Shown here: positions 20,492-63,653 of the stretch, one piece after another
How the letters are laid out: every line of letters begins with the position of its first letter
Position numbering within the stretch: position 1 is the first letter of the stretch
Assembly (NCBI GenBank): GCA_903944085.1
Contig: CAJAQO010000083.1
Span: forward strand, 6,590-70,589
Origin: an uncultured Verrucomicrobia subdivision 3 bacterium
GTDB lineage: Bacteria; Verrucomicrobiota; Verrucomicrobiia; Limisphaerales; UBA11358
DNA: 64,000 bases
Reading direction: 5' to 3'
Position numbers and translations under genes: made by a program
Notes under the pieces: model-generated
What the model was told of the DNA's origin: nothing
Database searches by the model: none
The model's input: the letters and a program-made list of their open reading frames with translations, nothing else

Positions 20492-21085
20492 ATGCTGGAT
20501 TTTCTCCACCAGCTATTCAGCCACCTCTGCGGCCAGAATCTGGCGCATACCTGGTCGCTCGGCGGCGAAGCGCTGCCGTGCTGTCAGCGCTGCACCGGCG
20601 TCTATGTCGGCGCATTCGTCGCGGCGCTGCTGCATCTCGTCCGGCGACCGCAACCAACGAGTTTCTGGCGCTGGCTCAACGGCGCGTTTCTGCTGTTCAT
20701 GGTTCCCGCCGGATTTCATTGGTTCCCGCAAGGCCCGGAACTGCGCGCTGCTTCGGGAATTCTTTTTGGCTTCGGCATCGTTGCTTTCCTGTGGCTGCCA
20801 TTGCCGGAGAAATTTACGATTTACGATTTACGATTTACGAGTGCGCGTGACGACCGGCGCGTAAATCGTAAATCGCAAATCATAAATGCCCTGGGCCTTC
20901 TTGCCGCGATCATCGGCACGCCGCTGCTCGGCGCGAGTGAAAATTCCCTCGCCGCCATCGCGCTCACGCTGCTGACCGCCGGCGGCGCGCTCGCGCTCGC
21001 GCTGCTGCTGGTGGCCAATCTTTTTCTCGCGGCCCGCGGATTGTGGCGGTGGTTTTTCCAACCGGCACCGCGCGTGGCTGCATGA
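20492..21085 (+). CDS. DUF2085 family membrane protein
   Basis: N-terminal Cys pattern CGQN...CCQRCTGVY followed by TM helices. Interrupted in frame by repeat element 20813-20887. Confidence 0.6.
   Translation: MLDFLHQLFSHLCGQNLAHTWSLGGEALPCCQRCTGVYVGAFVAALLHLVRRPQPTSFWRWLNGAFLLFMVPAGFHWFPQGPELRAASGILFGFGIVAFLWLPLPEKFTIYDLRFTSARDDRRVNRKSQIINALGLLAAIIGTPLLGASENSLAAIALTLLTAGGALALALLLVANLFLAARGLWRWFFQPAPRVAA
20813..20887. repeat. Heptamer-arm hairpin element (75 nt, in frame in the DUF2085 gene)
   Basis: (TTTACGA)x4, a 21-nt GC-rich spacer, then TAAATCG TAAATCG CAAATCA TAAAT. The arms are inverted complements. Encodes FTIYDLRFTSARDDRRVNRKSQIIN. Confidence 0.9.
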
Positions 21086-22584
21086 AAGAGCTGTTTCTCT
21101 TTGTCCGTCCGCCGCGCCCGCTGTGGCCATTCAACGGTCCCGCCTCATCCTTCTGGCCGCCGCTTGCGTTCGCTTCGATGGCCGCGATGCTGCGCCAACA
21201 CAATCCCGACTGGCGCGTGGAAATTCTCGACGCGCCCGCGCTCGAAATGGGCTGGCGCTCGCTCGAAGCCGAAATCTGCTCGCGCCGTCCCGCCATTGTC
21301 GCGATGGGCGAGGAAGCCGTGAGTTGCGCCGAATGTCTCCGCCTCGCGCGCCTCGCGAAAAGTCTCGGTGCCAGAGTCATCGCCGGCGGCTGTTTCTTCG
21401 GCCACGTCGGCCCGCAAGTTTTGCAGACCGGCCTGGTGGATATCGTCGCGCACGGCGAAGGCGAAAACACCATCGTCGAACTCGCCGACGCGCTTCGCGA
21501 AAATTCGCCGGACGCGTTTGCGCAGGTCGCTGGAATTTCCTTTCGCCGCGACGGCGAAATCATCCGCACGCGCCATCGTCCACTCATCAAAAATCTCGAT
21601 GAGTTGCCGATGCCTGCGTGGGATTTGCTGCCGATGCACCGCTATGGCGCGGGCAGCCAGAATCATCCCGGCCTCGCCGCCATCGAATCGTCGCGCGGCT
21701 GTTTCGACGCCTGCGATTTCTGCGTGCTGTGGCGGCAGATGGGAAATTTCGTCGCCGAACAGACACGGCCGTTCGTCCGTTTCAAATCCACCGCGCGCCT
21801 GTTGGAGGAAATCAAAATCCAGACGCGCGATTTTGGCCGCCACCATTTCGGCTGGGTGGATCCTTGTTATAATGCGCATCCGCAACTGCCCGCCGAGCTG
21901 GCCGACACGCTGCTCCGCGAAAATTTTTCCGTCAGCATGAGCGCGTGGGTGCGGGCCGACTGCGTCGTGCGCGACGCCCAATCCGGCGCGCTCGCCCGCC
22001 AGGTGCGCGGCGGTTTAAAGGAAGTTTACATTGGCGTGGAACGGGCCGACGGCGACGGTTTGAAAGCGGTTCACAAGACCACCACCATTCCCGAAGTGCG
22101 CGAGGCGTTCCGCATTTTGGTGCATGATTTTCCGGACGTGTTCACGCTCGGCACTTTTATTTACGGCCTGCCGGACGACACGCCGGAAACCGTGCGCGCC
22201 ATTTTCCGGCTGTCGCACGAACTGGAGATGAGCCAGCCGTTTTTCATCCCGCTCACGCCGCTGCCCGGCACGCCGTTCTGGCGCGACGAACTGTGGGACG
22301 ACACCGGCGAAAGTTTTCGCGACTATAATTTTCTGCCGTCCACCACGCGGCCCGGCGCGCGGCGCGACCTCGAATGGGCGCTGCTCACGGCCTTCCTGAC
22401 GCAATGGCCGCCCGCGCGTTTCCGTTCCTACTGGCGCAGCGTGTTCGACGCCAACGCGCGCCGCCGGCGCATGACTCTGCGGCTCGCGGCGCGCAGCGCG
22501 TGGTTTGTGGGGCACGGCATGGTGAGCAGCCTGCTCGCCGGCAAACGCGCTGGCATGATTTTCCCGCGCTGGTATGAAAGTTGA
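21082..22584 (+). CDS. B12-binding domain radical SAM protein (class B)
   Basis: Trimmed to the ATG at 21082 (ATGA overlap with the DUF2085 stop). N-terminal cobalamin-binding-like domain, then SSRGCFDACDFCVLW (CxxxCxxC). Confidence 0.82.
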   Translation: MKELFLFVRPPRPLWPFNGPASSFWPPLAFASMAAMLRQHNPDWRVEILDAPALEMGWRSLEAEICSRRPAIVAMGEEAVSCAECLRLARLAKSLGARVIAGGCFFGHVGPQVLQTGLVDIVAHGEGENTIVELADALRENSPDAFAQVAGISFRRDGEIIRTRHRPLIKNLDELPMPAWDLLPMHRYGAGSQNHPGLAAIESSRGCFDACDFCVLWRQMGNFVAEQTRPFVRFKSTARLLEEIKIQTRDFGRHHFGWVDPCYNAHPQLPAELADTLLRENFSVSMSAWVRADCVVRDAQSGALARQVRGGLKEVYIGVERADGDGLKAVHKTTTIPEVREAFRILVHDFPDVFTLGTFIYGLPDDTPETVRAIFRLSHELEMSQPFFIPLTPLPGTPFWRDELWDDTGESFRDYNFLPSTTRPGARRDLEWALLTAFLTQWPPARFRSYWRSVFDANARRRRMTLRLAARSAWFVGHGMVSSLLAGKRAGMIFPRWYES

Positions 22585-22599
22585 GGGATCGAAAAATTA

Positions 22600-61471: not shown

Positions 61472-61553
61472 ATTTTCAGCCTAGCGCAGCCGCGCGCGCG
61501 AGACGACGTAAAATTATTCGCGGCTAGGCGCTCTTTACGGCATTTTTATCGAA

Positions 61554-63653
61554 ATGGATGCCAAACACACCAATCATCTTGCTCGTGAAAAATCGCCGTA
61601 TCTGCTCCAGCACGCGCACAATCCCGTGGCCTGGTTCGCGTGGAACGCCGCCGCCTTCGCCAAGGCGCGCACGGAGAACAAGCCGATTTTTCTGAGCATC
61701 GGTTACTCGACCTGCCACTGGTGCCATGTCATGGAGCGCGAAAGTTTTGAGGACGAAAAAATTGGAGCATTTCTGAACGAACATTTCGTCAGCATCAAAG
61801 TGGACCGCGAGGAGCGCCCGGACGTGGACAAAATTTACATGACCTTCGTGCAGTCCACCACCGGCAGCGGCGGCTGGCCGTTGAATGTTTTTTTGACGCC
61901 AGATTTGAAACCGTTTTTCGGCGGCACTTATTTTCCGCCAGACGCGCGGCATGGGCGGCCGAGTTTCTTGCAACTGCTTCAGCAAATCGCGGAATTGTGG
62001 CGCGAGCGGAAAATGGAAATCTGCGCCTCCGCCGACGAGTTGCACGCGCGGCTCGAACTCATCACGGCGCGCGACGCCAAGGAAAATTCGCCGCTCACAC
62101 CGCAGACGCTCCAGCGCGCTGCGCAAATGTTCAAGGACGCCTACGATCCGGTGAACGGCGGCTTCGGCGGCGCGCCCAAATTTCCGCAGCCGAGCATTCC
62201 CTTGCTCGTTTTGCGCGCGGCGAAAAGATTTGGCGACGCCGCGGCGGTGAAAATGGTTTTGCATACCTGCGACAAAATGGCGGCCGGCGGCATTCATGAC
62301 CAGCTTGGCGGCGGCTTCGCGCGCTACGCGGTGGACGCCGAATGGCTCGTGCCGCATTTCGAAAAAATGCTCTACGACAACGCGCAGCTCGCGCAGCTTT
62401 ACCTCGACGCACATTTGATTTCAAAAGCGGAAAGCGGAAAGCGGAAAGCGGAAACTTATGCCAATACCGTCCGCGACATTTTGGATTATGTTTTGCGCGA
62501 CCTGACGCATCCCGGCGGCGGATTTTTTTCCGCCGAGGATGCCGACAGCGAAGGCCACGAGGGGAAATTTTACTGTTGGACAAAAGCCGAGCTTTCCAAG
62601 CTGCTCACGGTGGAAGAATACAACGTCGCGGCCAAATATTTTGGCATCACGGCGGCAGGCAACTTCGTGGATCACAGCCACCCGACGCCGCTGGCGGGGC
62701 AAAATGTTTTGAGCCGGATGAATCCTGATTTGCCCGCGCACGACCTGCCCTTGCTCGCGTCTGCGAAAATGAAAATGTCGGAGGTGCGTGCAAAGCGTGT
62801 TCGCCCCCATCTGGACGACAAGATTCTCGCCTCCTGGAACGGCCTGATGCTTGGCGCGTTTGCCCGCGCCGCCGCCGTTTTTGGCGAGGCAAAATATCGC
62901 GTGGCGGCGGAGAAGAATTTGCAATTCCTCCGCGAAAAACTTTGGGAACCGCCGCCCCAATCGGCAATCGGCAATCGGCAATCGGCAATTCCCGGCACGC
63001 TCTTTCACCGCTGGCGCGACGGCGAACGCGACCAGGTGCAACTGCTCGAAGGCTACGCGTTTCTGCTCGACGGCGTGATCCAGCTTTACGAGGCGACGCT
63101 GGAACCGAAACACTTGGCTTTCGCCATCGAGCTGGCCGGTGCGATGATTGCGACGTTTTACGACCCTGCCAATGGCGGCTTCTGGCAAAGTCCGGCGGGC
63201 ATGGACGATTTGATTTTGCGCGTGAAGGATGATTACGACGGCGCGGAACCGAGCGGCAATTCCGTGGCCACGCTCGCGCTGCTCAAACTTGCCGCCATCA
63301 CCGGTCGCGACGAATTTCGCCAGCCCGCCGAGGCCACGCTGCAGCTCTTCGCGCACCGGCTGCAAACCCAGCCCGCCGCGCTCGCGTTCATGCTGCACGC
63401 GCTGGATTTCTGGCTGGACGAACCGCGCCGCGTGGTCATTGTGGGCGACGCGAATTCCACAAATTTTCACGATTTGCTTCGCGCCGCGCACGCAGTTTAC
63501 CAGCCAAACAAAATTGTTCTCGGCAGCACCGGCGCGGTCGAGCCATTCGCCAAAACTTTGGCCGCAAAATCGGAAGCGACTGCTTACGTCTGCACCGGCA
63601 TCGCGTGCCAGCCGCCAACGCAGGACGCAAAAGTTTTGCAGCAACAGTTGTAG
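61554..63653 (+). CDS. Thioredoxin-domain protein (DUF255 / YyaL-like, N-acylglucosamine 2-epimerase-like C-terminal barrel)
   Basis: N-terminus [24 protein letters not shown]...[23 protein letters not shown]. 699 aa. Carries two in-frame heptamer arrays. Confidence 0.85.
62424..62451. repeat. Tandem heptamer array (AAAGCGG x4) inside the yyaL-like gene
   Basis: Read directly. Encodes [10 protein letters not shown]. Confidence 0.9.
62958..62992. repeat. Tandem heptamer array (CAATCGG x4 + CAATTCC) inside the yyaL-like gene
   Basis: Read directly. Encodes [19 protein letters not shown]. The unit and the 3' end (GGCAATTCCC) closely resemble the right arm of the mutS element at 27963-27997. 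Confidence 0.9.

Follow-up and report, generated by a model that had tools for sequence, protein, structure and literature searches.

Heptamer arrays and foldback elements lodged in frame in conserved genes of a Verrucomicrobiota lineage

The 64,000 nucleotides of contig CAJAQO010000083.1 that were analysed here (hereafter the window) raise a simple question: what are the short arrays of tandem 6-8-nt units that are scattered through them, many paired as hairpins and several situated within housekeeping genes such as mutS, and how did they come to be there? An initial annotation of this DNA listed at least 14 hairpin loci and concluded that they have one architecture but not one sequence. We find that the repeat family is real and well supported, and that the nature of its basic module, the pattern of its alleles and its occurrence elsewhere allow several explanations of its origin to be weighed. 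The best genome matches to the MutS protein of the window are metagenome-assembled genomes (MAGs) of Verrucomicrobiota, one of them 93% identical and the others 66-71%. The host belongs to a Verrucomicrobiota lineage and, as noted previously, the gene content is not cyanobacterial. The protein databases contain 120 MutS homologues with 89-100% identity to that of the window.

The window was scanned with Tandem Repeats Finder and with a scan of our own, using a cut-off of at least three units and, as the null model, 30 dinucleotide-preserving shuffles of the window. The former program marks period-7 arrays at nearly all of the coordinates in the initial list. Nine period-7 arrays of at least three units were found (at 20812, 20860, 23274, 27963, 32613, 34802, 59502, 62424 and 62958), compared with 0.03 expected per shuffled window, which bears out the earlier view that they are non-random. 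Our own scan returned three hexamer arrays and next to nothing at the remaining periods; a comparable excess at other periods of the window, including 8-12, was sought and not found. The excess of heptamers is also lineage-specific, since the window and its close relatives contain 42 period-7 arrays in approximately 434 kb, whereas unrelated MutS loci contain 15 in 2138 kb, making this lineage ~14-fold richer per kb. The recurrence of the elements in independent NCBI, ENA and JGI assemblies rules out an assembly artefact. As had been observed by eye, there is no heptamer array in bases 1-20000, a glycan/exosortase-type region; with nine arrays in the other 44 kb, such a zero is only marginally unlikely (~0.03). 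The single notable close-range inverted repeat in these 20 kb, at 13847-13898, is AT-rich.

The hairpin was thought to be the usual form of these repeats. An inverted partner within 60 nt was confirmed at nine loci, namely 20812, 23274, 27908, 32611, 33693, 34742, 37623, 39194 (hexamers) and 50589-50640 (octamers), and an inverted-repeat scan found that the long close-range inverted repeats of the window are nearly all an array and its own complement. The rest of the earlier list did not survive as hairpins built from heptamers: the arrays at 59488, 62424 and 62958 are solo, 28642 is a dimer of repetitive extragenic palindromic (REP) sequences, and 35380 is no element. The 12 real repeat-built loci span heptamer, hexamer and octamer versions, and two inverted units that form a long hairpin about a spacer of 20-100 nt are present at eight loci (six of heptamers, one of hexamers and one of octamers) and absent from the three solo arrays. 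Across the clade, a partner within 60 nt is found at an empirical p <= 0.01 for 14 of 46 arrays; this is far above chance and, with only 14 paired, the array is the more basic module and the hairpin one way of arranging it, not its defining feature. Array sizes in the clade cluster at 4.1-4.7 units, with few longer ones. The paired loci vary considerably in their ability to fold as single strands, with z-scores of -5.4 to -6.3 for 20812, 23274 and 37623, and of -3.3 to -2.0 for 33693, 39194, 34742, 32611 and 50589. The copy at 27908 in mutS folds no better than shuffled sequence (z = -0.6) because of one T.C mismatch in each unit. An asymmetry between G.T and A.C mismatches was considered as a guide to the folding strand and dropped, as the apparent antisense bias stems from units mutated to remove in-frame stops.

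Six of the 12 repeat-built loci sit within conserved open reading frames (ORFs), and it is here that the arrays can be read against an alignment. In mutS (27208-29865, minus strand), a heptamer foldback at 27908..27994 consists of (ATTTCCA)4.6, a 23-nt spacer and (CAATTGG)4.6. It occupies a position (site 2) between the motifs FVPNDT and QIALITGPNM, just upstream of the Walker A strand, where it adds 75 nt in frame relative to the empty allele and corresponds to an alignment gap between residues 609 and 615 of E. coli MutS, as seen in solved structures. Site 2 is empty, with a loop of 6-7 residues, in L084 and P0106 and in the outgroups L001 and L003. Two of the 120 homologues are empty, and the other 118 carry at least 10 kinds of insert, among them an octamer foldback, heptamer foldbacks in which three related pairs of units are represented, and several peptides resembling REP dimers. 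The common alleles pair GCCAATT with AAATTGG, GCCGATT with AAATCGG, and GCGGATT with AAATCCG, and all three retain the mismatch at the seventh position; of 21 allele clusters, ~18 have matched arms and three do not. Phase variation of mutS was considered and is ruled out by identical copy numbers in near-identical strains (the window and L085); it is also countered by the fixed length of the arrays in the essential gene tsaE. In a relative with 72% identity (L093), a 16-unit (CGGATGC) array lies upstream of mutS (L093 2-114) and site 2 (2224-2329) contains three different heptamer arrays side by side, one of which is the reverse complement of the CGGATGC unit 2 kb away.

Two further genes contain foldbacks. 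The DinG-like helicase gene (22600-24861, minus strand; Pfam Helicase_C_2/DEAD_2) carries a heptamer hairpin, (RGTTGAA)4.6 / (AACYTTC)4.4, at 23274..23359 (z = -5.4), which belongs to an in-frame insert of 90 nt relative to empty alleles. Four relatives (L082, L088, L089 and L090) have a short native loop at this site, and L101 has a different heptamer hairpin. In the gene for a membrane protein of the Pfam DUF2085 family (20492-21085, plus strand), an in-frame hairpin at 20812..20887 is formed by (ATTTACG)4.1, a 20-nt GC-rich spacer and (CGTAAAT)4 (-22.6 kcal/mol, z = -5.6); L096 has another, shorter insert at the same position. Both of the intragenic hairpins whose unit includes a stop triplet would have exactly one in-frame stop as perfect arrays, and in both it is precisely that unit that is mutated: the third unit of the right arm at 20812 is CGCAAAT, removing a TAA, and the variant unit GGTTCCA at 23274 removes a TGA. 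Host genes are therefore under selection for translation through the insert. An origin as ancestral protein features is ruled out by the empty alleles, the outgroups and the gaps relative to solved MutS and TsaE structures, and the elements are best regarded as insertions, as the initial annotation had proposed. The outgroups lack the peptide of mutS site 2, and the mutS, helicase and DUF255 sites are polymorphic for presence and absence among close relatives.

The solo arrays behave somewhat differently. That of tsaE (59417-59848, minus strand) is (GCGGATT)5 on the coding strand at 59488..59522 (minus), with no partner. It represents no net insertion, aligning to native sequence of Bacillus subtilis TsaE with a difference of +2 aa. 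All of 120 TsaE homologues are equal in length and have the array, with units that differ (GCGGATT, GCCGATT, GCCAATT, GCGAATT or TTTACGA); at the DNA level these are (GCGGATT)n in the window, (GCCGATT)4 in L169, (GCCAATT)4 in L170 and a heterogeneous array in L171. The DUF255/YyaL-like thioredoxin-domain gene (61554-63653, plus strand) contains two solo arrays on the plus strand. The first, (AAAGCGG)4.4 at 62424..62454, adds a net 21 nt (7 aa) relative to a native short loop, which 79 of 120 homologues have. The second, (CAATCGG)4.6 at 62958..62989, in which the last unit is the variant CAATTCC, adds a net 36 nt; the native loop is seen in 68 of 120 homologues. At these sites the non-native homologues have heptamer arrays of several units or REP-dimer peptides; those at 62958 are arrays of CAATCCG, CACTCCG, CATTCCG or AAATCGG, or REP-dimer peptides, and P0214 is exactly 7 aa shorter. 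When the homologues are ordered by neighbor joining, the DUF255 states are constant in tight clusters and scattered between clusters, which could reflect either many gains and losses or the exchange of alleles by homologous recombination. Of the insert sizes of 75, 84 and 90 nt given previously, those for mutS and the helicase stand, to be joined by the +21 and +36 nt of DUF255, and tsaE is to be removed.

The units themselves are less diverse than the phrase 'not one sequence' implied. Among 31 distinct canonical units of the clade, 23 pairs differ by one substitution or fewer, compared with 8.7 +/- 2.8 among composition-matched random heptamers, and seven of the 31 contain an AATCS core, a motif chosen post hoc. 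The units are thus not arbitrary, but belong to related families recurring at unrelated loci. The TTTACGA unit is found in the DUF2085 gene, in the spacer between the Ppx and epimerase genes and in some TsaE alleles; GCCAATT is common to mutS and tsaE, and CAATCGG to DUF255 and tsaE. An identical 33 nt, TCA(AAAGCGG)4AAA, occurs in the DUF255 gene of the window and in an unrelated gene of 440 aa in L169 and L170. Recurrence extends to phages. In a contig encoding a portal protein, an S49 protease and Mu Gam (L217), the element (ATTTCCG)4-N23-(CAATCGG)4 at 5163-5226 matches that of mutS site 2 in its arm pair, its per-unit mismatch and the 23-nt length of its spacer. Another phage contig, with a capsid protein and terminase (L177), contains two foldback copies with a common spacer, at 1865-1945 and 3590-3665. 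A contig of 71% GC (L219) has four copies of a 112-nt composite, at 1486-1640, 3653-3790, 4220-4331 and 5364-5492, in which a heptamer hairpin (AGGCAGT/ACTGCCT) is followed by a small GGTG-tagged hairpin of 12 bp, and the left-arm units vary from 3 to 7. These copies establish that complete foldbacks can exist as multi-copy elements and can occur in phage genomes. Near-identical copies, as expected of miniature inverted-repeat transposable elements, thus number four in L219 and two in L177, whereas the spacers of the window all differ. The contigs retrieved by array patterns are themselves dense in heptamer arrays, with 169 in 457 kb. That the unit, the copy number and even the terminal variant recur at unrelated loci and in a phage contig points to common descent or exchange rather than to generation driven purely by structure. 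Although the initial description holds for the most part, its proposal that structure alone is recognised or generated is left unsupported.

The insert at 28642..28717, in frame in domain III of mutS, is not built of heptamers. It is a GTGG-tagged REP dimer, similar to the long hairpins known as REPINs (REP doublets forming hairpins), of 76 nt with arms of 26 nt that each begin with GTGG (GTGG + GGCGAGCG..CGCGAGCC) and are 92% complementary (z = -7.5). Across seven relatives the variation falls in the 24-nt loop and the flanking codons, the stems being nearly invariant; at this site, other relatives have unrelated hairpin peptides, and this insert too corresponds to a gap relative to solved MutS structures. 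A link between REP dimers and the heptamer elements is suggested by the helicase of L096 (18475-19293, orthologous to ~23270-23360 of the window), where an insertion of ~818 nt consists of an IS200-like Y1 transposase domain, resembling the REP-associated tyrosine transposases (RAYTs), with GTGG-tagged REP dimers on both sides. It reads through the helicase in frame without a stop codon and so has the appearance of an intein-like transposase insertion. It could be supposed that the heptamer foldbacks are a divergent type of REPIN whose hairpin is recognised by a Y1 (HUH) transposase, a RAYT encoded once per genome. Their size and geometry are those of the REP dimer at 28642, the hot spots are common to both, each heptamer hairpin of L219 is followed by a small tagged hairpin, and the intragenic REP dimers of Opitutus terrae, of 20-30 aa, occur in DNA-repair genes (PMC3733652). 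We nevertheless consider this unlikely: the heptamer arms have neither a GTAG/GTGG tag nor an internal palindrome, the RAYT of L096 is flanked by conventional REP dimers and not by heptamer arms, two thirds of arrays are solo and unable to form a hairpin, and the mutS copy folds like shuffled sequence. A RAYT flanked by heptamer arms was found neither in the window (by tblastn) nor at L096.

The remaining elements lie between genes or at their ends. That at 32611..32689, between the Ppx/GppA and epimerase genes, is a heptamer hairpin, (GATGGCG)3.7 ... (CGCCAAT)3 CATAAAT (z = -2.0). The corresponding spacer is of ATTTACG type in L081, L083, L086 and L087, of GAAGAAT type in L082 and of CACAGAG type in L019 and L088, and an AAATTT spacer core common to the relatives indicates that the elements were remodelled in place. 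The annotated start codon of the epimerase is inside the element (32611-32646), giving an N-terminal extension of 14 residues; the start in relatives is an ATG (MRVLIVGCGY) on the edge of the element, and the true start in the window may be a downstream TTG. A short hairpin of ~2 heptamers per arm (TGCGTGA / TCACGCA) is located at 33693..33748 in a divergent intergenic region (z = -3.3), and a heptamer hairpin with longer arms, (AGTTTTY)4 ... (AACTAAA)4.6, at 34742..34832 between the divergent genes for DciA and an extracytoplasmic function (ECF) sigma factor (z = -2.5), its unit unchanged in L081 and L087. The hairpin of the GAATGAW family at 37623..37715 (-24.2 kcal/mol, z = -6.3) encodes the final codons and stop of a gene of 591 aa. 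A T-rich tract comes after it, and the element is conserved in L081. The hexamer version at 39194..39324, (TCCTAA)4 (TCGTMA)n and inverted (GATTAM)4.5, lies between the convergent beta-CASP and T2SS-F genes (z = -2.7), nested within an outer CGTTGAA/TTCAACG stem; L081 and L019 have instead a classical terminator, a GC stem with a T run. The hexamer family TCCTAA/TCTTAA/TCGTAA, with inverted GATTAC/GATTAA, forms hairpins both here (39194-39324) and at 4584-4679 of L003, a distant relative with a MutS only 66% identical. The octamer version at 50589..50640, in the mreC-mreD spacer, comprises CCGCCAAG TTCGCAAAG, a short loop and (CTTTGCGG)2.9 (z = -2.0). The candidate at 35380..35410 was rejected; where the stop of one gene overlaps the start of the next, GAATGAT is repeated no more than 2.4 times, with no inverted partner, and the stretch is conserved in L081.

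Such positions bring to mind a selected function, with the elements serving between genes as terminators, mRNA stabilizers or protein-binding sites and within proteins as heptad-repeat linkers. In keeping with this, some sit where relatives have a terminator, the T-rich tract follows 37623, the units at 34742 and 37623 are unchanged in relatives, 120 of 120 homologues have the tsaE array, and hairpins of the short tandemly repeated repetitive (STRR) sequences of cyanobacteria have been proposed as transcript stabilizers (PMC2670836). We regard it as very improbable all the same. Close relatives show presence and absence of the elements and their replacement by unrelated sequences, the positions include divergent promoter regions and coding loops, the spacers evolve fast, and the peptide at a given site is not conserved. 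Nor is there an excess of terminator-like sites: a terminator-consensus scan of the window gave 48 compared with 37 +/- 6.5 expected, with no element among them, and the features of a terminator (a short GC-rich stem, a loop of 3-8 nt and a T tract) are lacking, a T-rich tail being found only at 37623. A search of the whole window against Rfam at gathering thresholds matched no element, its sole match being the tRNA gene at 44423-44493.

How the arrays change once in place is seen most clearly in the genes, where units are gained or lost exactly three at a time. In several mutS alleles one arm is short by precisely 7 residues, in the octamer version the loss is 8, and a DUF255 allele is shorter by 7, as would be expected from slippage combined with selection for the reading frame. 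In P0099, an (AAATCGG) array within the loop of a REP dimer has grown by 21 nt from a seed of 1.5 units, and was thus born in place. In tsaE the whole array switches unit in concert, with its length unchanged. The three-unit steps and concerted changes directly support slippage, one of the mechanisms suggested previously. From here it is a small step to the idea that the arrays are entirely the product of mutation in situ, without mobility. They would arise from chance proto-repeats by polymerase slippage, with loops of at least 5 nt escaping MutS and inverted partners formed by intramolecular template switching at terminators or REPs, and the likeness of units between loci would come from a sequence-dependent propensity to slip together with coding filters. 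Beyond the events at P0099 and tsaE and the steps in mutS, this accords with the remodelling of the Ppx/epimerase arms around a conserved spacer core, with a hairpin standing in place of a terminator hairpin at 39194, with the lack of common spacers among the window elements, with the frequency of control heptamers in viral contigs (see below), and with the ascription of the heptameric repeat excess in many bacteria to polymerase slippage (PMC4692102). Several observations are nevertheless difficult to reconcile with it, and we consider it possible but on the whole doubtful. Array sizes peak sharply at 4.1-4.7 units rather than falling from the threshold; an identical 33-nt array is present in two unrelated genes; the imperfect arm pair of mutS, with its per-unit mismatch and 23-nt spacer, is repeated in a phage contig; the multi-copy elements of L219 and L177 keep their spacers and flanks; and the stepwise construction of a 75-90-nt insert in mutS or the helicase would need several tolerated in-frame intermediates.

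We therefore favor, at about an even chance, a reading in which the elements are small foldbacks, non-coding and non-autonomous, that are akin to STRR-type heptamer repeats, insert at permissive sites and are then remodelled by slippage and gene conversion. The basic module would be a tandem array of ~4 to 4.7 heptamers (28-33 nt), with roughly one module in three occurring as an inverted pair around a GC-rich spacer of 20-25 nt to give a foldback of 75-95 nt. Complete foldbacks, and perhaps single arrays, would arrive preformed at permissive sites, either by single-strand or hairpin-mediated transposition in trans or by a copy-and-insert process at replication forks. They would survive only where harmless, in intergenic spacers (often replacing a terminator or other hairpin) and in protein surface loops, and in the latter only in-frame, stop-free versions would persist. 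After arrival, polymerase slippage would add or remove units, with only three-unit steps surviving in genes, and slippage or gene conversion would homogenize the units so that the whole array changes in concert and the two arms tend to change together. The role of selection would be confined to filtering for frame, for freedom from stops and for loops that tolerate the insert. What we infer in this scheme is how the elements arrive, what mobilizes them and why the period is 7 nt. One-step arrival is preferred because a two-arm insert of 75-90 nt in an essential gene is hard to build stepwise, and because of the preferred module size, the sharing of identical arrays by unrelated genes, the phage copy and the multi-copy versions elsewhere. 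A hairpin-specific Y1 transposase, another of the mechanisms put forward originally, is a plausible candidate in view of the RAYT-like gene in the same helicase hot spot of L096.

A number of observations weigh against insertion of preformed elements. Within the 64-kb window no two elements have a common spacer or common flanks, so that this genome gives no direct evidence of recent copy-and-paste. A terminal motif (GTAG/GTGG tag) and a target-site duplication were sought at the heptamer elements and neither was found; compared with empty alleles, the filled alleles replace 5-8 native codons, with no clean insertion and no clear duplication. A tblastn search for a Y1 transposase across the window found none encoded, and the sole RAYT found, in L096, has REP dimers rather than heptamer arms on its flanks. 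The remodelling of the Ppx/epimerase arms in place and the origin in situ of the P0099 array mean that in-situ processes alone could explain much, and the scatter of alleles on trees could stem from homologous recombination between strains instead of many insertions. Among exact three-unit stretches in IMG/VR contigs, (ATTTACG)3 occurs 43 times and the controls (ATGTTCA)3 and (ACTTTAG)3 occur 48 times and twice, respectively. As control heptamers can be as common as ATTTACG, recurrence of units is weakened as proof of mobility; it becomes a less certain sign of shared descent and could in some cases be convergent. The specific arm-pair patterns, searched in the viral contigs, gave one locus each.

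A bolder suggestion, and in our estimation an improbable one, is that a dedicated enzyme system of these bacteria or their phages writes modules of ~four heptamers, often in both orientations around a hairpin-prone site. Candidates would be a relative of the HUH/Y1 transposases, a templated polymerase or a reverse transcriptase. Were this the case, the 7-nt period and the 28-33-nt module would be the step and footprint of the enzyme, and arrays would be overwritten from a shared pool of templates, which would explain both the length-neutral concerted switches and the presence of identical arrays in unrelated genes and phages. Irrespective of origin, the elements extend the biology of heptamer repeats, long noted and unexplained in cyanobacteria, Xanthomonas, Geobacter and Beggiatoa, to the Verrucomicrobiota. 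With arrays in essential, well-aligned genes, gains, losses, steps and switches can be read against hundreds of metagenomic relatives, and the hot spots could serve as a gauge of repeat turnover and as a test of whether polymerase slippage or an enzyme is the source of the heptamer excess. They also show how much selfish or mutational DNA is tolerated by MutS, TsaE and DinG-like helicases. For genome annotation, the inserts lead to inflated protein lengths and to spurious 'hypothetical' peptides in genomes of the PVC (Planctomycetes-Verrucomicrobia-Chlamydiae) group.

Comparison with known systems places the elements closest to several of them without identity to any. Heptamer repeats are over-represented in many bacteria, including Nostoc and Xanthomonas, and a polymerase-dependent slippage step has been suggested (PMC4692102); those of cyanobacteria are the STRR sequences, which can form hairpins (PMC2670836) and which the initial annotation fairly cited as a precedent. 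The likenesses are 7-nt tandem units, several unit families per genome, many dispersed loci, an excess specific to period 7, copies of which some are hairpins or inverted pairs, and orthologous loci that vary in length and sequence among close relatives (PMC2670836; PMC4692102). By contrast, the host here is of the Verrucomicrobiota, array size is narrowly ~4-4.7 units, the hot spots are common to REP dimers, and the units are AT-rich in a genome of 58% GC and do not form G-quadruplexes, unlike heptameric simple sequence repeats. Placement is not mainly intergenic, as it is for STRR sequences, with about half of the window copies in frame within conserved genes. In Geobacter metallireducens, elements of four heptanucleotides in tandem (GGACCGG) occur at 49 loci, within and between genes (PMC2700814), and TAACTGA repeats, in sets of 2-6 copies across distant phyla, are common to Beggiatoaceae, cyanobacteria and some Bacteroidetes (PMC4679880). 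These families share with ours a module of ~four tandem heptamers at dozens of loci. They have, however, one dominant unit and are nearly all direct repeats, whereas the present elements use many related units, are frequently paired in inverted orientation and show documented turnover of alleles.

In their size and setting the foldbacks resemble the REP/REPIN class, as hairpin dimers of ~75-90 nt that encode 20-30 aa in frame in verrucomicrobial replication and repair genes (PMC3733652). Intragenic REPs are most numerous in the verrucomicrobium O. terrae, where each dimer contributes 20-30 residues, DNA-repair genes are frequent hosts, and GTGG replaces GTAG in many of them (PMC3733652). The insert at 28642 fits this description (PMC3733652) and alone has the REP tag and palindrome, the heptamer arms having no 5' tag with internal palindrome. 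Where the same paper touches on Rickettsia palindromic elements (RPEs), they are presented as selfish palindromic DNA that housekeeping genes carry in frame and whose presence in the protein is tolerated (PMC3733652), and to that extent in-frame palindromic DNA in conserved ORFs is a shared property. RPEs are set apart by a family consensus of 100-150 nt, by the lack of tandem short units and by another host lineage. The foldback (FB) transposons of eukaryotes also have short tandem repeats making up their inverted arms; they are kilobase-scale, with known associated transposase genes, and offer an analogy only. What is new here are the heptamer-armed foldbacks in frame in mutS, a helicase gene and a DUF2085 gene, the solo arrays fixed in tsaE, a dense allelic series with three-unit steps and concerted unit switching, and hot spots common to REP dimers and a transposase.

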